DNA of 64,000 nt from Escherichia phage finno. Position numbers and translations under genes: made by a program. The notes under the pieces are model-generated. The model worked only from the letters and a program-made list of their open reading frames with translations. It searched no databases and was not told where the DNA came from. Below, in pieces: positions 3,890 to 25,308 of this stretch. Positions within the stretch are counted from its first letter, which is position 1, and every line of letters starts with the position of its first letter. The DNA lies in sequence record MN850619.1; one strand, 5' to 3'.

Positions 3890-4130
3890 ATGTTAGTACC
3901 TCTTTTGTATGCTTATTCTTAGCAAGCACATCTTTCAAATCATTTTTGTAATTGGTGCTCAGTGTGACTAATCCTTCCTGATAAGCATCTTTAGCAACAC
4001 TTATGAGCTTTTGATTATTTAGCTCAGTTTCAGCAACTTGATAGTCTCTGTAAGAGTATCCTCCCCAGACACCTGCCCCAACTAAGAAAACAATTATGAA
4101 AGTAGCTTGACAGAACTCTTTAAATGTCAT
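3783..4130 (-). CDS. membrane protein with N-terminal TM helix (possible i-spanin)
   Basis: Hydrophobic segment ATFIIVFLVGAGVWGG then a charged region; the lipoprotein ORF is embedded at its 3' end. Confidence 0.4.
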   Translation of the reverse strand: MTFKEFCQATFIIVFLVGAGVWGGYSYRDYQVAETELNNQKLISVAKDAYQEGLVTLSTNYKNDLKDVLAKNKHTKEVLTYEKTKPEFYNVCVTDNYVRVFNEQSEQYIQKLPSK

Positions 4131-4657: not shown

Positions 4658-5353
4658 TCAATGTTTAACTAACATGGTTTTGATGTGTGGAAGGATTCTG
4701 TTCACCTTCTGCACATTCTTCTCTGTATCTTCTATAAAACATACTATATTAAAGTAAGGCAGAATGCAAGACTGAATCATCCTCACTTTCAAACTTTCTG
4801 CACTTATAGAGTTAGTACCAAAACCACGCATAAAAAGCATGTAGTCATGCTCTGTGTTATGTCTTAAAAACATCTCAGTAGGTATTCTCTGAGATTCGCC
4901 TCTCGCTGTCAAGAGTCCAACAGCAGCATGATTAGCAATTGCATCAATGATATTGAAAACATACGTTGGTTTTGCTCTTACAGAGTCAAGAAGATTAGTG
5001 TACTGCGAAAATGAACCATCAGTCAATTCCGTTGAACAATCTTCGTGATTAAAATTTGTAAGAACTCCATCAATATCTGCTAAGATAAGATTACCTTTCT
5101 CTACAAGGTCTTTATTGACTATGACTAAACTATCACGTTTTACACCTATGGATTGTCCAGTCTCTTTGTCCACAACGTTCACAATTGGTTCTGATGTGTG
5201 GAACTCTTCAAGTGAACATACAACTTCTCTTGCGGTGTCTTCAAAATCCCTGCACTGTTCTGGAGTCCATACACAGGAATCAAGACCTAGCTCATGAGGG
5301 TGCAAGTCATAAGCATGGCACAATACTTCATCAGACTTTCTTAATTTTTTCAT
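4658..5353 (-). CDS. hypothetical protein, possible HAD-like phosphatase/nucleotidase
   Basis: DIDGVL, LLTARGE and FIEDT resemble HAD motifs I, II and IV, but motif I is unusually far from the N-terminus. Confidence 0.3.
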   Translation of the reverse strand: MKKLRKSDEVLCHAYDLHPHELGLDSCVWTPEQCRDFEDTAREVVCSLEEFHTSEPIVNVVDKETGQSIGVKRDSLVIVNKDLVEKGNLILADIDGVLTNFNHEDCSTELTDGSFSQYTNLLDSVRAKPTYVFNIIDAIANHAAVGLLTARGESQRIPTEMFLRHNTEHDYMLFMRGFGTNSISAESLKVRMIQSCILPYFNIVCFIEDTEKNVQKVNRILPHIKTMLVKH

Positions 5354-10071: not shown

Positions 10072-10096
10072 ATTAAAAAGGCTCCCGTAGGAGCCT
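10072..10096 (-). terminator. rho-independent terminator after NAMPT gene
   Basis: GGCTCC-CGTA-GGAGCC hairpin followed on minus strand by TTTTTAATT. Confidence 0.7.
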
Positions 10097-10110
10097 CTTA
10101 TCATATACTT

Positions 10111-11892
10111 TTAAAGCTGCTTGTCAATATTATTTCGAATATCACCAAGAGTTGTGTAACCGAACTGCTCAGAGTCACTAAAGACTAAACGTAAAGCACA
10201 AGCTGGGTGGTCAAGTACATCTGCAAAACTCTGGAATCCATAGCCATCTACAGCTTTCAGCTTATCACCATCCCACATAGGTGCTACACCACCAAAGGCA
10301 GATTTCTTAACACCACTATCTGTTTTAGGGTCTTTTGCAAGCATAATCTCTTTACCACCAATGCTTGCAAGAGTTGCTTTGACAGCAAATGCAAAGGTGT
10401 CACGAGTCATGTACTGGTAAGTGTAAGAACCTACGCCAAACACCACGTTAGAGCTTGCAAAACCCATTTCATACAGACGCTTCAGGATTTCGTTTGCACG
10501 TTCCAGTGTGATAGAGTCACCATAGATAAGGCCGATATGCTCGTCCAGTACCTTAAATCCTTTAGAGTTAATAGTTCCCCCAAAGATGTTGTACAGTGTC
10601 TTAATAGCTCCATCAATCTCAGCTACAGGACGTGTTACAACGTTTGCAGAGCCAACCATATAAGCATTTTTCAACATCACTGTATCAGCAACTTCAAAGT
10701 CTTCTCGGTCAACAACCATTTCGTAGCCTTCTGACAGTAGCCATCCAGCAATACCATAGCTGATGTTTTCAAGCTTCATGTTCAGAACAGCATTCAGCAT
10801 TGTGTCACTGGCTTCCAGCTTGCTTAGGTGCTCGTAATAAGCCTTTTTAGCACACTCTAAGTGGATTGCTTTATAACCTGTGACAATATGTACAGGGTCT
10901 CCAGAGTCAGGACGAATTACCAGTTTACCGTCACGTTCCATAATTTCTTTACGAAGTGCTGGTAAGATTTCTGACACAGTTCTCCAGAAGTTATAAGTGT
11001 CTGAAACAATACTTGCAATACCAGTTGGGTAAGTTTCTGTTAAGAAACGACGGAAGGTTTGTAACTCACCTTTAAATCGTCTTTCTTCTTCAACCAACTC
11101 GTTACCACCTTCCCAAGCAATGTTTGCACACATTACAGAGTGTTCAGTGGCTGGTACAGAGCTTCCAATATCAGAGATTGGATAGGTCTGCCCATAGATA
11201 CGTTTAGCCGTGTATACAGCAGGGAAGCTATCAGTCCCTTTAAAGCTGGTTAAGTGTCCTACAGCGTTGAATGCGTCATCAGTAAAGCCGGACATACCAC
11301 GCATAGCAAAGTCATGGCACTGATAAGGTAAATGCAAGTCGTTGTCGCAAGTGAGGTCAGCCCACTTCTTACAGATACGTTTGTAGTGCAATGCAATAGT
11401 TGCAATGGTGCAAGCCTTCCAAATCTCAGCAGAGAAAGCGTCTTCTAGATAACCTGCTACCCAATGGAAACCTGAAACAGTGTTCTGGAAGACAATCATT
11501 GGAACACGCATAGGAACAACTGTACCTTCTTCTACAGCGTATACTTCAACTGGTAGATAGCCTAAATCGTGAAGTGCTTCCCAATGCTCTCGACCGATAG
11601 CATCTTTACCCAGAACACCATTCATGACTTCTAAGATTTCGTCAACTGCTCCTTTTTTATCACGTTCAAAGAAAGTGGCGTTCCAGTGGTCTATCAAGTA
11701 ATCTTTAACAAAACGTTGAATACCAAAAGCTACTACACCATCAATTGCTAAGGGGCTGTTAAACCATTTGTCGCTACGTGGTGTCAGGTTGAACATCAAG
11801 TAATCTGTTGCACTGGGGTATTGGTAAACATGGCCAGATTTGTAAGCGTCCGCGTTTAAACCTGCTGGTACTGCATAAAGTGATTTAGTCAT
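10111..11892 (-). CDS. nadV: nicotinamide phosphoribosyltransferase (NAMPT)
   Basis: 593 aa; N-terminal ADAYKSGHVYQYP is characteristic of NAMPT. Confidence 0.8.
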   Translation of the reverse strand: MTKSLYAVPAGLNADAYKSGHVYQYPSATDYLMFNLTPRSDKWFNSPLAIDGVVAFGIQRFVKDYLIDHWNATFFERDKKGAVDEILEVMNGVLGKDAIGREHWEALHDLGYLPVEVYAVEEGTVVPMRVPMIVFQNTVSGFHWVAGYLEDAFSAEIWKACTIATIALHYKRICKKWADLTCDNDLHLPYQCHDFAMRGMSGFTDDAFNAVGHLTSFKGTDSFPAVYTAKRIYGQTYPISDIGSSVPATEHSVMCANIAWEGGNELVEEERRFKGELQTFRRFLTETYPTGIASIVSDTYNFWRTVSEILPALRKEIMERDGKLVIRPDSGDPVHIVTGYKAIHLECAKKAYYEHLSKLEASDTMLNAVLNMKLENISYGIAGWLLSEGYEMVVDREDFEVADTVMLKNAYMVGSANVVTRPVAEIDGAIKTLYNIFGGTINSKGFKVLDEHIGLIYGDSITLERANEILKRLYEMGFASSNVVFGVGSYTYQYMTRDTFAFAVKATLASIGGKEIMLAKDPKTDSGVKKSAFGGVAPMWDGDKLKAVDGYGFQSFADVLDHPACALRLVFSDSEQFGYTTLGDIRNNIDKQL

Positions 11893-11912
11893 CTTTTAAT
11901 CTCTCTCAAAAT

Positions 11913-11928
11913 GGGGCTTTCAAGCCCC
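11913..11928 (-). promoter_or_regulatory. GGGGCTT/AAGCCCC stem-loop between prs and NAMPT genes
   Basis: Hairpin GGGGCTTTCAAGCCCC; same stem family as the 5' cassettes and the 7141-7158 promoter hairpin. Confidence 0.45.
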
Positions 11929-11937
11929 TATAAAGTT

Positions 11938-12843
11938 TCAATCAATGGTTGCTACAGTAACTTGGGCGTAATGTGTTAAGCCACGGTCTTTAGCTTCACC
12001 TAAAGAGTTTGTAGTGTAGATATGGTCAATACCATTGTCAAGTAAGTTTTCAACACCTTTAGAGAAAATACCATGAGTTACATAGAGTTCCACACGTTTT
12101 GCACCTGCTTCACGGAGATGTTTCGCTGCTTCTATGAAGGTTCGACCACCATCACAGATATCATCCAGAATCATGACGGTTTTATCTGTCAAATCAGCAT
12201 CGTCAAGGATTCGCATACCAGTGATTTCTCCCGTCTTAAGATTGCGCACTTTAGACATTGTGATGTATGGTTTATCCACCTCTTTAGCAGTCTCTGCAAT
12301 CTTCTTAGCAGCACCTGCATCTGGGGCTACTAAGTAATCAATTAGAGGGTCATTTGCATAGTGAACTGCAATTTCCTTTTGAGGAATACTCTGGAAGCAG
12401 TTAAACAGGTTATCTGGTACATAGCTGTGAGGGTCAACTGCACAGACTGCATCAAAACCCATTGCATTAACCTGTTGTGCAAACACTTTCAAAGCTGCTG
12501 CATCACCTTTAAACATGTGACGGTCGTAACGTGCATTTGGCAAATAGTAAAAGATAGCAGTCTTCATAGCAAACTTATGGGGTACTAAATCGTCAATTGC
12601 TTCTTTAGCAAGTGCCACAGCAAATAATGTGTCTTTGTCATAACCCTTTACAATCATAATCACGTTGTTGATGGATGATGCTGCATAAGCAGTAAAATCA
12701 ACAAGCTCTTGTGAAAAGTGTCCACCAATCTCACCAGAAGGGAACTGGATGATGTTAAACTCTTCTTCATGAGACCCTTTTGTCGGTGAATGAATTATAA
12801 CACGAATAGATGTTTTCATAGTTTTCTCTCTCTTTATTCCCAA
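11938..12843 (-). CDS. prs: ribose-phosphate pyrophosphokinase (PRPP synthetase)
   Basis: 301 aa; VMILDDICDGGRTF is the PRPP-binding phosphoribosyltransferase motif. Confidence 0.8.
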   Translation of the reverse strand: MGIKREKTMKTSIRVIIHSPTKGSHEEEFNIIQFPSGEIGGHFSQELVDFTAYAASSINNVIMIVKGYDKDTLFAVALAKEAIDDLVPHKFAMKTAIFYYLPNARYDRHMFKGDAAALKVFAQQVNAMGFDAVCAVDPHSYVPDNLFNCFQSIPQKEIAVHYANDPLIDYLVAPDAGAAKKIAETAKEVDKPYITMSKVRNLKTGEITGMRILDDADLTDKTVMILDDICDGGRTFIEAAKHLREAGAKRVELYVTHGIFSKGVENLLDNGIDHIYTTNSLGEAKDRGLTHYAQVTVATID

Positions 12844-13241
12844 ATAACCTTTCTACGCTTTATCTGGATAATGTTCTTTTTACAATATTCGATAGCTTCA
12901 TCTATTGACCCAAAACTTTCCTTCTCCACAAAGAAGCGAACTTCACCATCTTGTATCTTTTGTTCTTCGGCTGTTGGCTCTTCAAGTATTTTACTTGATA
13001 CTTCTCTGTTAATCTGCATTACATACTCGAAAGAGTTCTTCTTGTATCCAACTATTTTAATGTAACCCCTCTGGCGAAGACGATTGAACCGAGTTGACTT
13101 GTTTGTCTTGGATACATCTGGAAATTCCTTGTCATGGATACTACGTATCTGTGAGCAAGTAAATGTTTTATCATAGCCAAACTCATTATACAGGACTTTT
13201 AACAGTTCAATCATAACATCACTCCCAAATAACTTTTGCAT
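12834..13241 (-). CDS. paralog family protein, subtype B copy 2
   Basis: Start moved to ATG at 13241 (MQKLFGSDVM) to match subtype B copy 1; shares C-terminal motif ending KVIWE. Confidence 0.55.
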   Translation of the reverse strand: MQKLFGSDVMIELLKVLYNEFGYDKTFTCSQIRSIHDKEFPDVSKTNKSTRFNRLRQRGYIKIVGYKKNSFEYVMQINREVSSKILEEPTAEEQKIQDGEVRFFVEKESFGSIDEAIEYCKKNIIQIKRRKVIWE

Positions 13242-13683
13242 GTTTAACTTTAATAAGATGCTCTTTGCAGTGCTCAATAGCTTCATCTAGTGTTTTAAAC
13301 ATAACATCCGCGATAAAGTATCTTACGTCAGGTTGTACATCAACATCTTTAACCTCAGATAAGTTTGATTTTTGTGAACTCCCCAACTCTTCACGCGTGT
13401 TATCTAGCATCCTTGACAGTTGTATGTGCTTCTCCATAAAGGCTCGATTTAATTGATTAATACTTAGTCTACCTTTGCTTTTTACCTGCCCTACAGTCAG
13501 TAGTACACCAGACTGTCTTAACATTGTTAGATACCCACGGGTATTACTGATTGACTGGCCTCGTATAAAAAGGCTATTCTCTCTTAATGCGTCAATTGCT
13601 TCGTTAGAGTCAAAAGTGTTTTCTGTCCCGAAGGTTTTGTATAAAATCTCTATTACGTGCTTCTGTAAATTGCAAAAAATCAT
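13219..13683 (-). CDS. paralog family protein, subtype A copy 2
   Basis: Colinear with 14105..14560 over its whole length (MIFC..QK..IEILY...FDSNEAI...EHCK...KVIWE). Confidence 0.6.
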   Translation of the reverse strand: MIFCNLQKHVIEILYKTFGTENTFDSNEAIDALRENSLFIRGQSISNTRGYLTMLRQSGVLLTVGQVKSKGRLSINQLNRAFMEKHIQLSRMLDNTREELGSSQKSNLSEVKDVDVQPDVRYFIADVMFKTLDEAIEHCKEHLIKVKHAKVIWE

Positions 13684-13704
13684 AGTGTATTCCTAATCAA
13701 ATGT

Positions 13705-14127
13705 TTAAACTTCTTCCCAAACAATACGCTTTCTTTTTGTTTGGATAACCGTCCTCTTACAATGCTCAACTGCTGCCTCCATACTGGTAAAGTGTATGTC
13801 ACCTATGAAGTACCCTACTTCACCTACACTGACCTCTTCATCCTTTTGTTGATAGTCATTACAATTTAAAAGCACATTTTTAGCTTTGCTTTCATTGATT
13901 CTCATAAGATACTCATTATTAAATCCTGTCGCTCCAACAACACTAATGTACCCACTTTTACGTAATCTGTGAGACCAATTAGCTTTATCCCTGATTGAAG
14001 CATGTGGTAGATATTTATTAAAAACCTTAGTTAGTTGTGAGCCAGAAAATGTTTTATCATAGCCAAAATTTATATACAGAACCTTCAGAAGCTCAAACAT
14101 GTTATTACTCCCAAATAATTTTTGCAC
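13705..14127 (-). CDS. paralog family protein, subtype B copy 1
   Basis: MQKLFGSNNMFELLKVLY N-terminus; C-terminal AAVEHCKRTVIQTKRKRIVWE. Confidence 0.6.
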   Translation of the reverse strand: MQKLFGSNNMFELLKVLYINFGYDKTFSGSQLTKVFNKYLPHASIRDKANWSHRLRKSGYISVVGATGFNNEYLMRINESKAKNVLLNCNDYQQKDEEVSVGEVGYFIGDIHFTSMEAAVEHCKRTVIQTKRKRIVWEEV

Positions 14128-14560
14128 GTTTTACTTTGATAATATACTTTTTGCAGTGTTCAACAGCATCTTGGAGTGTATCAAACATCAACTCACCAAT
14201 AAAGAATTTTATGTCTGGAGACACACCTACACCACCACTTAAGTCTTTTTGCTGCTCTTCACGTTGGTTTCGTGGCTCTTTAAGTAAATAGTCTAGCTGA
14301 ATGTGCTTCTCAATAAAACCTCTATTTAATTGGTTGATGAGCATCCTCCCTTGTTGCTTAATCTGTCCTACCACGATGAGCACACCCCACTTTCTCATCT
14401 GAGTCAAGTAGTACCTGATGTTTGCTATTGGCTGTTTTTTGATGTAATCACTTCCTTCTTGTAGGGCTTCAATAGCTTCATTTGAGTCAAATGTGTTATC
14501 TGTCCCAAACTTATTGTATAGAATCTCAATAATTCTTTTTTGGAAGCTGCAAAAAATCAT
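14105..14560 (-). CDS. paralog family protein, subtype A copy 1
   Basis: 151 aa; C-terminal DAVEHCKKYIIKVKRAKIIWE. Confidence 0.6.
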   Translation of the reverse strand: MIFCSFQKRIIEILYNKFGTDNTFDSNEAIEALQEGSDYIKKQPIANIRYYLTQMRKWGVLIVVGQIKQQGRMLINQLNRGFIEKHIQLDYLLKEPRNQREEQQKDLSGGVGVSPDIKFFIGELMFDTLQDAVEHCKKYIIKVKRAKIIWE

Positions 14561-14569
14561 AATTTTCTC

Positions 14570-14848
14570 TCAATCAAAAGTTACGTTTGTTACTGCCATT
14601 GCAGATTTGCATTTTACAGGGTCTACAACGTGATAAAGTACACTACAGTTACCTGTGCTGTCTGGTACAGGCTTTACCCATTGCTGCTTTATAGTTGGCT
14701 CCCCTAAGTCTTTGTAAGAGCCATCTGTAAAGTTGTTTACCATCTCAAGTGCAATTGGTTCTGGAACATGACCACGTATCATGTACATTTCACAACCATT
14801 ACCACCTTCACTGACTAATGGTAAAATCTCCCACTTCTCTTTAGCCAT
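14570..14848 (-). CDS. hypothetical protein
   Basis: 92 aa ORF. Confidence 0.5.
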   Translation of the reverse strand: MAKEKWEILPLVSEGGNGCEMYMIRGHVPEPIALEMVNNFTDGSYKDLGEPTIKQQWVKPVPDSTGNCSVLYHVVDPVKCKSAMAVTNVTFD

Positions 14849-15356
14849 TGTAAGTCGCCCTATAAACTGTCTCGAACTTCAACAGGAGAGATATTGCCAA
14901 ATCTGTATAGTTGTTGTCAAGCACATCTGGCATATTATTTTTGATATATTTCTCTTGCTCTTCATAGGTCATCTTAGGAGTGCTTAGAAGGTTATCTCCT
15001 TGCTTCTGGTTATCAAGTTTAGTCTGGATAAACCAGTTTGCACAGTGATGCTCACCACCCTTTGTAACAGGTTTGTGGTGGCCTAATGTAAATGTTTGCT
15101 TACCTGTATACCTGCAAAGATTGTTCAGTGTTGCAATAGTGTTCTTCACAACACACCATTCATATAGGTTATCTATTGTGTAGTGTGGGTAATAACGGAC
15201 AAGTGCTCTTTCACGGAAGTTATCACGATTCCAAAGAACCATGTGATTCGAGTTAGAAGGGTCGTATTGGTGGGAGTCAATGAACTCTTGACGCTCCTCA
15301 AAGCTGAGTCTTAGAACTGACATTGCAGCCGAACGTTTCAGGTTTGACAGATACAT
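14841..15356 (-). CDS. HNH endonuclease-like protein
   Basis: GHHKPVTKGGEHHCANW...NQKQG resembles the HNH motif. Confidence 0.55.
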   Translation of the reverse strand: MYLSNLKRSAAMSVLRLSFEERQEFIDSHQYDPSNSNHMVLWNRDNFRERALVRYYPHYTIDNLYEWCVVKNTIATLNNLCRYTGKQTFTLGHHKPVTKGGEHHCANWFIQTKLDNQKQGDNLLSTPKMTYEEQEKYIKNNMPDVLDNNYTDLAISLLLKFETVYRATYNG

Positions 15357-15407: not shown

Positions 15408-15728
15408 TTACTGAGCTACTTTCAAGATGCTTGTGAATGAAATCTCACTCTCATCCATAAACTCTTTTGCTTCTCCAGTAACTTTTACAAAGTTATCTAG
15501 GCAGATAATCTTCTTATCTTTCTTGCTATAGGTTAGCTTGACCTTTTCGATATCTTTCTTAGAGTTTTTCTCTTCATTAAAGAGCTTCACAGCTTCTTTA
15601 AATGGTAGGTATGAACCATCATCATCGCTAATAAAACCTGTGCCACAATAGTAGAAGTTGTATTCTTTAGCCATAAACTGACACAGTACGAAAATCTGTA
15701 ATTTGCGAGTGTTATAGACTTTGCTCAT
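15408..15728 (-). CDS. hypothetical protein
   Basis: 106 aa ORF. Confidence 0.55.
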   Translation of the reverse strand: MSKVYNTRKLQIFVLCQFMAKEYNFYYCGTGFISDDDGSYLPFKEAVKLFNEEKNSKKDIEKVKLTYSKKDKKIICLDNFVKVTGEAKEFMDESEISFTSILKVAQ

Positions 15729-15988: not shown

Positions 15989-16113
15989 TTCGTATCTCTC
16001 TCAATCTTTTCACAAAATGTTTTAAGTTCTTCTTCAGTGACACCAAACGGTTAAGTTTGTTCTGTAGAACATTGTAAAGTGGCCTTTACCGATAACCTAC
16101 TTTACGACGAAAC

Positions 16114-17226: not shown

Positions 17227-17328
17227 TTTAACTTATCTCTCAATTCACAATAAGAGAGTCCTAAAAAGAACCCTAGTAAGACAGAACCGATGAACAACCC
17301 AATAATACTATCTGCCATATCTAACATC

Positions 17329-17380: not shown

Positions 17381-19525
17381 TTACATAGAAATCCTGTCAC
17401 GAATCTCAGCGATTTTTGCATCGTTCATTCGGGATTCACCTTTAATCTTAGTCCATCCCAGATATCCGCACACCCTGTTAATCACAGAGATATCATGTGA
17501 ATGACAAACCTCACATTCTTCGACATCAGCCTTTGGTCTGTTACCACAATGTTCACAGATTGCTAAGTCAAAGTTAAGACCTTGATAGAAACCTTTCAAC
17601 ATCCCTCTTGTAATACAACTCTTAAGTGCTGATAAGTTTTCTGGATTAGCCACCCTTACATACTGGATTCTGCCGCCTCTACAGATATGGAAGAAGGGTT
17701 CTTCTAAGTCCTGCTTCTCAAATGGTGTAATGTCTGCTGCAACATTCATATGGAAGCTGTTTGTAAAGTATTCCTTATCAGAAACACCTTTGATAACGCC
17801 AAACATATCTCTGAACTGTTTTAGCTGAGTTCCACAAAGTGATTCTGCTGGAGTGCCATAGACTGCATATAAGAAGCCATCTTCATTTTTAAACTCTTCA
17901 GTCTTCATGTTGATATATTCCAGAACATCATATGCAAAACTACAGCTTCCAACTTCATGAAGTCGTTTACCTTCAGCAAGAACAGATAGCTCATCAAGCG
18001 CAGTAACCCCAAAAGAAGCTGTGAAGGACTTCACGATATCCCAGCCAACCTTGTCAGTAGGCTTCTTATTCCCTTTGTACAGACCACCTTGTGTGAATGC
18101 AAGAGGGTTAGAACTTGCTGGCATATTAGCAATCATTTCGTAGCGTTTCTTGTGGAAGCTGCGAATCATTTCTAGGTACTTATCAAGCTCTTTCCAGAAA
18201 TCTAAACCATTCTCTTTAGAATACTGGTAAATCATTGGCAAGTTCAAAGATACAGCACCAATGTTAGCACGACCAACGTAGAACTCTTCCCCATCCTCAT
18301 TAAGATATGGAGATAAGAAGGCTCTACAACCCATCGGCGAAATTACCTTGCCAGAACGCTCAAAAGCTTCTGCTACAGCACCATGACCAGATACACTTAA
18401 GAAATCTGGATACATTGCTTTAGAGCAACACTCTATAGCTTTACTGTACAGGTGGCCTTGACAGATATTCTCATTATGTCTCTTCTGGTCATAAATATAA
18501 ACCAGTTTAGGGAATACAACAGGTTTCTTGCTCTTACCTTGTCCATTCATACGAACATCTAGGAGAGTACTTGCAATCATATATTGCAGTCGGTTATCTT
18601 CATTGGACATATCTGAGTCAAGTAACCCGAATGTCAAAGTTGTGAATGCAAAATCCCCACGGCTACAAGGTACAGTATTTAGCTTCATTTCAAGTGACTG
18701 GAAACCTTGAGTTAGTTCAATCTGTAGCTGCTCCATGACATAATTATGGTAATGTTCTTTAGGAATACCATACGATGCTGCTTTCTCAGCATGATAGCGT
18801 AGAGACTTCTTAGCATACGGTACAAGTACCTTATCAATCTCTGCTAAAGTAAAGCCACCAAATTGCTGTGCAGTTGCTGAAAGAACTACGTCACCAATAA
18901 CCTGTAAGGCCGACAGCACAGACTTTGGTTCACAATATTCGATGCCAGACATTTCAAAGCCACCTTTCAGGACTTTACCAATGTCAAACAGGCAACAGTT
19001 GATACCACCAAAAATTAGGTCTCTTAAATCATGGATATAGATAAACCCTTTTTCAATGGCTTCAAGTTCCTCTGGTGTTAAATGGTACTGTTTAAAGATT
19101 TCTTTAGTCAGATAACCACGAATAATTGAGCCTTTTGTAGAAATTAAACTGCTGTCAAAATTAGCGTTTTCTCGGTCACCTAAGAAGAGTGTATCCTTGG
19201 TCTTCTGGTAGAGTTCATCCCAATTTTGAGCAACCTCTTTACGGTAATTTCTATATGTTGAGTAAGACTCATAAATCTCGTGATTGACTTCTGCCAAAGC
19301 ACCCTCAACAATACTGTGAATATCATTTACAGAAATTAGCAAATTATTCTGCTTAGTGGACTTTACCAGAATCCTCATAAATGCTGACTCAAGAGCTTGG
19401 GTAACATCTGGTGGGAGTTCTTTATACCCAACCCTATTAGCTGACTTTGTGACTGCTGCTAAAACTTTTTTGATATCAGGTTCTTCGAGTGAGCCATTCT
19501 TTTTAATAATCTGTACTTTGTTCAT
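17381..19525 (-). CDS. nrdD: anaerobic ribonucleoside-triphosphate reductase (class III)
   Basis: 714 aa; C-terminal zinc ribbon CEHCGNRP...CEVCHSHD and glycyl-radical region RVCGYLG. Confidence 0.85.
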   Translation of the reverse strand: MNKVQIIKKNGSLEEPDIKKVLAAVTKSANRVGYKELPPDVTQALESAFMRILVKSTKQNNLLISVNDIHSIVEGALAEVNHEIYESYSTYRNYRKEVAQNWDELYQKTKDTLFLGDRENANFDSSLISTKGSIIRGYLTKEIFKQYHLTPEELEAIEKGFIYIHDLRDLIFGGINCCLFDIGKVLKGGFEMSGIEYCEPKSVLSALQVIGDVVLSATAQQFGGFTLAEIDKVLVPYAKKSLRYHAEKAASYGIPKEHYHNYVMEQLQIELTQGFQSLEMKLNTVPCSRGDFAFTTLTFGLLDSDMSNEDNRLQYMIASTLLDVRMNGQGKSKKPVVFPKLVYIYDQKRHNENICQGHLYSKAIECCSKAMYPDFLSVSGHGAVAEAFERSGKVISPMGCRAFLSPYLNEDGEEFYVGRANIGAVSLNLPMIYQYSKENGLDFWKELDKYLEMIRSFHKKRYEMIANMPASSNPLAFTQGGLYKGNKKPTDKVGWDIVKSFTASFGVTALDELSVLAEGKRLHEVGSCSFAYDVLEYINMKTEEFKNEDGFLYAVYGTPAESLCGTQLKQFRDMFGVIKGVSDKEYFTNSFHMNVAADITPFEKQDLEEPFFHICRGGRIQYVRVANPENLSALKSCITRGMLKGFYQGLNFDLAICEHCGNRPKADVEECEVCHSHDISVINRVCGYLGWTKIKGESRMNDAKIAEIRDRISM

Positions 19526-25069: not shown

Positions 25070-25308
25070 TCGGACTCCTTAAAATATTTGTTAACCTTTA
25101 GCTCTCGTGTTTCAATATATTCTAGATGCTCACGTAGCTCTTGACGTTTAAGCATTAGGTGCTGCATTTGAGATTCAACAGCTTCAACTTCTTTGAGTAT
25201 TGACTCTCTAGCATTTGCAAGGATGCGCTCAAGTTCTTCAATCTTGCTGTCAACTTTTGCTACATGACTCACAGCTTTACTTTTGTTAAACATTTTATTC
25301 TCTCTCAA
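25045..25308 (-). CDS. small coiled-coil protein
   Basis: 87 aa, heptad-like charged sequence. Confidence 0.5.
   Translation of the reverse strand: MRENKMFNKSKAVSHVAKVDSKIEELERILANARESILKEVEAVESQMQHLMLKRQELREHLEYIETRELKVNKYFKESECLTQENQ

Follow-up and report, generated by a model that had tools for sequence, protein, structure and literature searches.

Introduction

The closest relatives of the genes described here are known only from catalogs. The genes are four consecutive open reading frames (ORFs) at positions 12834 to 14560 of a 64,000-nucleotide (nt) stretch of Escherichia phage finno (sequence record MN850619.1), directly upstream of a two-gene counter-defense operon, NARP1. (We call the whole stretch the window, and we count positions from its first letter.) Their products are already catalogued, but only as hypothetical proteins and as the PHROG family phrog_29478, which includes all four window proteins and one distant relative, P0015. 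The entry for phrog_29478 gives no function or domain description and does not mention that the genes are organized as paired cassettes. What is new here is the description of winged-helix proteins with an unmatched C-terminal module, organized as exchangeable paired cassettes. Our favored explanation, to which we give a probability of roughly 45%, is that these are recombination-mobile accessory cassettes that would encode paired nucleic-acid-binding proteins and modulate infection.

By fold, the closest described proteins are regulators of the MarR, PadR, and Fur types. Each of those is a single homodimeric regulator, while the array genes come as diverged pairs whose products are putative DNA binders. 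The array proteins match no winged helix-turn-helix (wHTH) profile from Pfam or NCBIfam, and they lack the N- and C-terminal dimerization helices of MarR-type proteins. Their beta-beta-alpha module and their tail, which ends in Trp-Glu (WE), have no counterpart in any of these regulators.

Among phage proteins, Gp5.7 of T7 is a small wHTH-like protein that represses promoters of the host RNA polymerase (PMC5569994). The array proteins may be analogous to it in function, as they are also small, winged-helix-like, apparently non-enzymatic candidate modulators of transcription from a lytic phage. However, there is no sequence relationship, and Gp5.7 is a 7-kDa, single-domain protein that is encoded outside any array of paralogs.

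NARP1 is an NAD+ reconstitution pathway (Adps plus Namat) that counters NAD+-depleting defense, as found by experiments in the Felixounavirus Bas63 (bioRxiv 10.1101/2024.02.11.579819). A comparison can be made to the Aca (anti-CRISPR-associated) proteins: the array proteins are small, of the helix-turn-helix type, and probably encoded in the same operon as a counter-defense function (here, NARP1). Unlike aca genes, the array genes lie upstream of the counter-defense genes, not downstream. Nor do they co-occur consistently with the genes that they might regulate: 15 phage records encode the family, versus 256 with the prs-NAMPT locus, so the array is present in only about 6% of the genomes with the operon. 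Also, there are two or four paralogs, and we found no palindromic operator.

Finally, homing-endonuclease cassettes of T4-like and Felix O1-like phages resemble the array in that they have a fixed intergenic site, are sporadic, are exchanged, and diverge discordantly with their flanks. They differ in that the array has no nuclease domain or catalytic residues, and its bounds are generic repeats of the ribosome-binding-site (RBS) type rather than a cleavage or homing site.

Four paralogs of two alternating types

The window is a segment of a Felixounavirus genome. Its region 12700-14700 is closest to Escherichia phage vB_EcoM_ESCO50 (99.4% identity), and the 214 phage records that match this region are nearly all Felix O1-like, which is how an earlier note on the letters of the sequence had placed the phage. 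Positions 12834-14560 are filled by four consecutive minus-strand ORFs in the order A1-B1-A2-B2:

14105..14560, minus strand: A1 gene, 151 amino acids (aa); predicted winged helix, linker, beta-beta-alpha module, and basic tail ending in WE
13705..14100, minus strand: B1 gene; with the ATG at 14100 as its start, 131 aa; we regard the form extended to the GTG at 14127 as an artifact
13219..13683, minus strand: A2 gene, 154 aa; second A-type paralog; matches phrog_29478 with E = 9e-68
12834..13214, minus strand: B2 gene; with the ATG at 13214 as its start, 126 aa; we regard the longer forms, with starts at 13241 or 13286, as artifacts

The two A-type proteins are 58% identical in a four-way alignment. 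By BLASTP, B1 and B2 are 41% identical (E = 8e-36), A1 and B1 are 30% identical (E = 8e-19), and A2 and B2 are 29% identical (E = 2e-15). All four proteins match phrog_29478 (PHROGs v4) over their full length (E = 5e-63 for A1, 9e-68 for A2, 3e-14 for B1, and 1e-15 for B2). Given these statistics, the alternating array of paralogs that the earlier note described is real and far beyond chance.

That note had also proposed two sequence signatures. The N-terminal one, for the A-type proteins, is exact as written. The C-terminal one, for all four proteins, is real but looser: its first part reads QDAVEHCK in A1, EAAVEHCK in B1, EYCK in B2, and KHAK in A2. Across 18 family members, the invariant columns (in A1 numbering) are F120, F126, A132, C136, I141, K144, W150, and E151.

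Two-gene cassettes at a fixed site

Within the Ounavirinae, the family’s site is constant: it lies between a 92-aa gene and prs, which encodes Adps. In the window, these flanks are:

14570..14848, minus strand: 92-aa gene, phrog_4726 (no function assigned); conserved left flank, which adjoins prs in Alf5 and Bas63
11938..12819, minus strand: Adps (annotated as prs), first gene of NARP1; conserved right flank; Pfam PF14572 and PF00156

We searched 50,697 phage records with tblastn and found the family in 15 of them, all Ounavirinae. Four copies are present in 10 of these records, all Felixounavirus, and two copies are present in Pr103Blw and in each of four Mooglevirus records (Mordin twice, Henu11, and KMM2). 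At the Ounavirinae loci that we examined, including those on metagenomic contigs, the copy number is even (0, 2, or 4; never 1 or 3), and the first gene is always of the A type. The site is empty in Alf5, in Bas63, and in every flank-only record among the matches listed, with 11 nt from the 92-aa gene to prs. Mooglevirus-like metagenomic contigs (L007-L012) have A1-B1 only. Pr103Blw, Mordin, Henu11, and contigs L019-L021 have A2 followed by a third A-like subtype, which we call A'. The full A1-B1-A2-B2 arrangement is found in the window, in ten phage records, and in contig L018.

In the window, two families of DNA repeats, 74-76% identical, recur in the two cassettes (877 nt apart in one family and 886 nt in the other), and the upstream junction recurs before A2 in degenerate form (ACNTTTGATTNNGA...ATGATTTTTTGCA). 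The idea that a two-gene cassette is the unit here was already in the earlier note, which drew it from a 23-nt gene overlap that depends on the choice of start codons (see below). It holds on better grounds, because A1-B1 occurs alone elsewhere, because the repeat unit is nearly constant (877-886 nt), and because the junction motif stands before each cassette.

The array is bounded by a direct repeat:

14557..14571, no strand assigned: upstream copy of the array’s bounding direct repeat (15 nt; GAGAGAAAAtTATGA on the coding strand); 14/15 identity between copies, which are spaced 1741 nt apart
12816..12830, no strand assigned: downstream copy, found by repeat search, over the RBS and start codon of Adps

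Where the site is empty, in Alf5 and Bas63, there is a single copy of this repeat. In Mordin (L004), a perfect 37-nt direct repeat (3968-4004 and 4933-4969) flanks the two-gene cassette; duplicated in it are the RBS, the ATG, and the final codons of the 92-aa gene. This is the clearest footprint of the insertion, or possibly the loss, of a cassette. The cassette of contig L009 is flanked by a direct repeat of 14 nt.

The core motif of this boundary sequence, TTGAGAGARAA (a stop codon overlapping a GAGA-type RBS), has 14 matches in the window versus 6.4 expected, and 0 of 100 shuffled sequences reached 14. All but two of the matches (12 of 14) are on the minus, or coding, strand (examples are at 11899-11909, 14563-14573, 15994-16004, 17233-17243, and 25298-25308), and several of those that we checked are just upstream of start codons. 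As this is a general RBS or gene-boundary motif, microhomology is available at many gene junctions, and the motif could be a source of microhomology for modular gene exchange across the genome. Another feature of the upstream boundary is an AT-rich imperfect inverted repeat over the A1 start codon (14528-14564; 15-nt arms, 80% complementary, with a 7-nt gap). It is probably not an operator, because it is not conserved at the start of A2.

Divergence and exchange of the cassettes

A neighbor-joining tree of the family has five subfamilies: A1, A2, A', B1, and B2. The synonymous divergence (dS) between A1 and A2 is about 2.4, and each copy in the window is closer to copies from other phages than to its neighbor, so we rejected a recent duplication in place. 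For example, the window’s A2 is 79% identical to the first gene of the pair in Pr103Blw and 74% identical to Mordin’s. The sequences are best read as two anciently diverged, long-separated cassettes that now stand in tandem.

The divergence of the cassettes is discordant with that of their flanks, and in both directions. Compared to contig L009, the cassette has dS of 0.27-0.40 while the flanks have dS near 1.0; compared to Pr103Blw, A2 has dS of 2.4 while the flanks have dS of just 0.2-0.26. This implies that cassettes move between phages by recombination. On a finer scale, the array is 97-99% identical to those of the ten array-bearing phages, versus 94-96% identity to the same phages for the prs-NAMPT segment. 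The window’s prs-NAMPT segment is closest to that of phage heid, which does not have the array.

The genes themselves seem to be maintained. Orthologs of A1, B1, and A2 have ratios of nonsynonymous to synonymous divergence (dN/dS) of 0.05-0.19, which indicates functional genes (the ratios for Adps and Namat are similar, 0.04-0.15), and the reading frames of all cassette copies are intact. These results bear on another explanation, that the cassettes are selfish or near-neutral cargo that spreads by hotspot recombination, like free-standing homing-endonuclease genes, without benefiting infection. Sporadic insertion between conserved genes, bounding by direct repeats, and divergence discordant with the flanks are what would be expected of such cargo, and homing-endonuclease genes are common here in related genomes. 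But strong purifying selection and intact frames in every copy are not, there is no nuclease domain, and the C-terminal module lacks the invariant His, Asn, or Asp of a His-Me finger. We give this explanation only a slim chance.

Start codons of the B genes

The earlier note began both B proteins at the longest ORF (B1 at the GTG at 14127, B2 at the ATG at 13241), which gives them a shared N-terminus (MQKLFGS..M) and an identical overlap of 23 nt with the preceding A gene. The arithmetic is right for these ORFs, but the shared N-terminus exists only under that choice. The MQKLFGS stretch is the conserved C-terminus of the A-type proteins (..K-R/H-A-K-I/V-I-W-E-stop) translated in a second frame, and it looks conserved because the A-type C-terminus underlies the same DNA.

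A better-supported start lies slightly downstream. In both cassettes, there is an ATG 4 nt past the stop codon of the A gene (at 14100 and 13214), and the terminal codons of the A gene, TGG GAG for W-E, contain GGGAG exactly 7 nt upstream of each of these ATGs:

14108..14112, minus strand: GGGAG, putative Shine-Dalgarno sequence of B1, from the W-E codons of A1; spacing kept in L007, L008, and L009
13222..13226, minus strand: GGGAG, putative Shine-Dalgarno sequence of B2, from the W-E codons of A2, by reading of the sequence

We found no RBS upstream of the GTG at 14127 or the ATG at 13241. For orthologs on metagenomic contigs, independent gene calls give 131 aa for B1 and 126 aa for B2 (on contig L018), with 4-nt gaps, and the GenBank entry for ESCO50 annotates B1 at 131 aa. 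Most likely, the B genes start at 14100 and 13214, and the W-E codons of the A gene supply their RBS, which leaves a gap of 4 nt in place of the overlap.

The longer gene models, in which the B proteins begin with MQKLFGS and each B gene has a 23-nt overlap with its A gene, do have open frames in both cassettes, and in GenBank, B2 of ESCO50 does start at the MQKLFGS ATG (135 aa). We consider these models improbable, given the shared origin of the MQKLFGS peptide, the placement of the Shine-Dalgarno sequences, and the independent gene calls. Furthermore, the upstream start of B1 would be a GTG, and the extension of the B proteins fails to align with the N-terminus of the A proteins.

Predicted structures

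To describe the proteins’ architecture, we relied on AlphaFold2 models of A1 and B1, which were built from shallow alignments (14-15 sequences). The two models agree: each has an N-terminal winged helix, one more helix, a disordered acidic linker, a beta-beta-alpha module, and a disordered basic tail. In A1, the winged helix is formed by helix 5-18, strand 23-25, helices 26-36 and 45-58, and a wing of strands 61-67 and 73-78. Both models have the topology of a winged helix (alpha1-beta1-alpha2-alpha3-beta2-beta3, with a beta-hairpin as the wing). For this part, the predicted local distance difference test (pLDDT) is about 90 over residues 11-60 of A1 and 80-89 over residues 1-80 of B1. In structure searches, the best matches were winged helices that bind DNA, among them MarR, PadR, Fur/PerR, SarX, forkhead, ORC/Cdc6, and TubR; for B1, the best Foldseek matches are winged helices of MarR, PadR, and forkhead. 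Both the predicted topology and the fold matches agree with the earlier reading of the N-terminal halves as small winged-helix domains. The winged-helix parts are basic (isoelectric points of 9.1-9.9), the linkers are acidic, and the tails are basic and end in W-E in every family member. The basic charge of the winged-helix parts is the one indirect sign of sequence-specific DNA binding.

Across the five subfamilies and one distant single-copy relative, the best-conserved part is the C-terminal module, which fits a common interface. The region of the recognition helix differs between the A and B proteins.

We also considered whether the beta-beta-alpha module might be a nuclease of the His-Me finger or HNH type, and rejected this, as there are no invariant catalytic residues among the 18 members. 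Such a nuclease has a catalytic His where beta1 ends and a metal-binding Asn, His, or Asp in the helix. The His of the EHC motif is a Tyr in B2 and in the A' copies, and none of the invariant columns is a His, Asn, or Asp of the hairpin.

A narrow family without a characterized relative

For the four proteins, sequence searches of Pfam, NCBIfam, PADLOC, and the Protein Data Bank (PDB) gave only noise, in agreement with the earlier note, which recognized no characterized family. No curated wHTH family from Pfam or NCBIfam scored above its cut-off (the best matches were unrelated, with E > 0.005), and a profile search of the PDB reached MarR at E = 0.4-0.7 only. PADLOC’s models gave no match at E up to 1, which is a weak test because those models cover defense and not anti-defense.

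The family is small. A word-indexed search of 5.8 billion clustered proteins, with single queries and with a profile, found about 14 clusters, each of them from this family. When a HMMER profile was compared exhaustively to 1.84 billion representatives, the only addition to the known subfamilies was a distant relative, P0015 (125 aa, E = 5.5e-9). The remaining matches were a protein of tandem winged-helix repeats, which is generic, and two other repeat proteins, which are spurious. P0015 also matches phrog_29478 (E = 9e-9) and has the same C-terminal module (...IEHCRQHIIQKKTRKIVWE). Its gene is at 8001-8378 of L006 (Logan contig SRR31815898_117897), which is from an unrelated phage that encodes NAMPT, rIIA, and rIIB. 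There, the gene is single-copy and at another position that does not adjoin the NAMPT-like gene. (It lies downstream of rIIB, amid small accessory genes that include a weak match to WYL_2 and a Macro-domain gene.) The tandem repeat protein, P0016 (1424 aa), has ~90-aa repeats that match the winged-helix part of the profile (E = 1e-5), with a consensus of approximately ..THDLLGWLIEHFxENKTV..L..LKKRGLI.. This looks like generic winged-helix likeness and not family membership.

A fold search of BFVD returned the family itself and then only generic viral wHTH proteins, and Rfam had no match within the window. Our literature searches found no paper on the family, and it did not appear in the anti-defense literature that they returned.

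A tentative model

We propose that the array consists of an accessory two-gene cassette in two tandem copies and that, among the phages searched, this cassette is confined to the Ounavirinae. It is gained, lost, and swapped by recombination, for which the conserved flanks and the short repeats at gene boundaries provide the homology. Both proteins of a cassette would be made together, and in the A-B cassettes, translation of B would be coupled to that of A. The partners may then join into a hetero-oligomer via their common C-terminal module, and this complex could bind nucleic acid, most likely DNA, through its two different winged helices. During infection, it would be a dispensable, non-enzymatic factor that regulates or modulates the expression of phage or host genes.

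Several results weigh against this model. Tight coupling is not universal, as the two genes of the A2-A' cassettes are separated by 29-33 nt. Pairing is not obligatory for the family either, as P0015 is a single gene. The C-terminal module, where the partners would meet, was modeled with a pLDDT of only about 65-74 (and the tail with less than 50). Although there is similarity to solved winged-helix domains, the Foldseek matches are weak (E = 0.01 or worse), and the top fold matches also include MukF, JetA, Scc1, NB-ARC, and Roquin. The winged-helix fold is also used for binding proteins and RNA. A search for inverted repeats within and beside the array gave no conserved candidate for an operator, and no homolog points to a function.

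Whichever function the cassettes have, near-identical Felix O1-like phages with 0, 2, or 4 copies at one site upstream of NARP1 form a clean natural experiment. If the cassette affects host range or evasion of defenses, then comparing ESCO50 (with the array) to Bas63 (without it) would reveal this quickly. It would also be relevant to biocontrol of Salmonella and E. coli, where Felix O1-like phages are used. If instead these are ordinary accessory DNA-binding proteins, then the gain is a routine improvement in annotation (the fold, the gene starts, and the limits of phrog_29478). Small paralogous hypothetical genes are common in phages; in this case, the function lends itself to direct tests, thanks to the fixed site, the copy states, and the clean junctions. 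The locus also illustrates how conserved RBS or gene-boundary motifs can serve as recombination joints for the exchange of cassettes in lytic phages.

Relationship to NARP1

The earlier note placed the array beside NAD+ salvage genes. The locus is indeed accessory and adjoins a counter-defense operon, but more precisely, the neighbors are the two genes of NARP1. The second NARP1 gene and the probable limits of transcription are:

10111..11892, minus strand: Namat (annotated as NAMPT), second gene of NARP1; Pfam PF04095 and PF18127
15374..15396, minus strand: terminator-like hairpin upstream of a 171-aa gene; probable upstream limit of the array’s transcription unit
10076..10099, minus strand: terminator-like hairpin after Namat; probable end of the array’s transcription unit

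Between the two hairpins (15396-15374 and 10099-10076) are the array, the 92-aa and 171-aa genes upstream of it, and both genes of NARP1, so the array is probably co-transcribed with NARP1. The record for Mordin has terminators annotated at the equivalent places, including after its NAMPT gene.

Helix-turn-helix regulators are often found in anti-defense operons (as with Aca), and NrtR-type regulators control bacterial nadV/prs operons. By analogy, and because predicted winged-helix proteins are encoded immediately upstream of NARP1 in what seems to be the same transcription unit, the array might encode dedicated regulators of NARP1, Aca-like or NrtR-like, that tune the expression of Adps and Namat. 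We think that this is very unlikely. NARP1 works in Bas63 without the array, and the family is absent from about 94% of the records with the prs-NAMPT locus. No operator-like palindrome accompanies the cassette, two or four different paralogs are more than an autoregulator would need, and P0015 does not adjoin the NAMPT-like gene of its own phage.

Alternatively, the proteins could be counter-defense or host-takeover effectors, carried as cargo of a NARP1 island, that inhibit a host protein (for example, a defense-system component) by binding to it, in which case the winged helix and the conserved C-terminal tail would be docking surfaces for protein instead of binding nucleic acid. The earlier note suggested such a role from the array’s position only, and position is still the sole link: the array immediately precedes NARP1, whose counter-defense function is proven by experiment, and the two are probably co-transcribed. 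A sporadic, recombination-driven distribution and several diverged subtypes are typical of anti-defense cargo, and the invariant WE tail, predicted to be disordered, resembles a docking peptide. However, there was no match in PADLOC or in the anti-defense literature that we found, and the low gene-wide dN/dS gives no sign of an arms race. Overall, we view effectors as unlikely. We consider it quite unlikely that the array represents a more specific version of this idea, a new class of paired winged-helix counter-defense proteins that travels with NARP1, in which the heteromer, through its two different winged helices and the invariant WE tail, would disarm a component of host immunity or silence the expression of that component, and the five subfamilies would be shuffled variants in specificity.

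We also considered and rejected two closer ties to NARP1. The array is not a part or a requirement of NARP1: NARP1 works in Bas63, whose site is empty, so it is independent of the array. And the array is not tied to a particular allele of Adps, as Alf5 has an Adps with the same type of N-terminus as the window’s and yet has an empty site.

The window’s Namat is 99% identical (in amino acids) to Bas63_0080, and its Adps is 80% identical to Bas63_0079. Because the differences in Adps are concentrated in its N-terminal half, the alignment suggests a recombination breakpoint inside Adps, adjoining the cassette site.

Other neighboring genes

The earlier note had an HNH endonuclease on the other side of the array. 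The immediate upstream gene is instead the 92-aa ORF, and the next one, the 171-aa gene (14841-15356, minus strand), has only a weak HNH-like PHROG match. Its family is phrog_3500 (no function assigned), the HNH-like match is secondary (phrog_2214, E = 4.5e-6), and there is no HNH match from Pfam. We rejected the possibility that this gene is a mobile homing endonuclease that drove the insertion, as it is conserved both with and without the array and its HNH match is weak. In ESCO50, the label “HNH endonuclease” is on a different gene, of the DUF7390 family (15408-15728 in the window).

Homing endonucleases have been annotated elsewhere in these genomes. ESCO50 has an HNH homing endonuclease gene between NAMPT and prs (L001, 2739-3230), where the window has a 45-nt spacer (11893-11937). 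In Bas63, the annotation of nrdD (L017, 8631-11517) joins two pieces that lie on either side of a putative homing endonuclease gene; the window’s nrdD (17381-19525) is one intact ORF of 714 aa.

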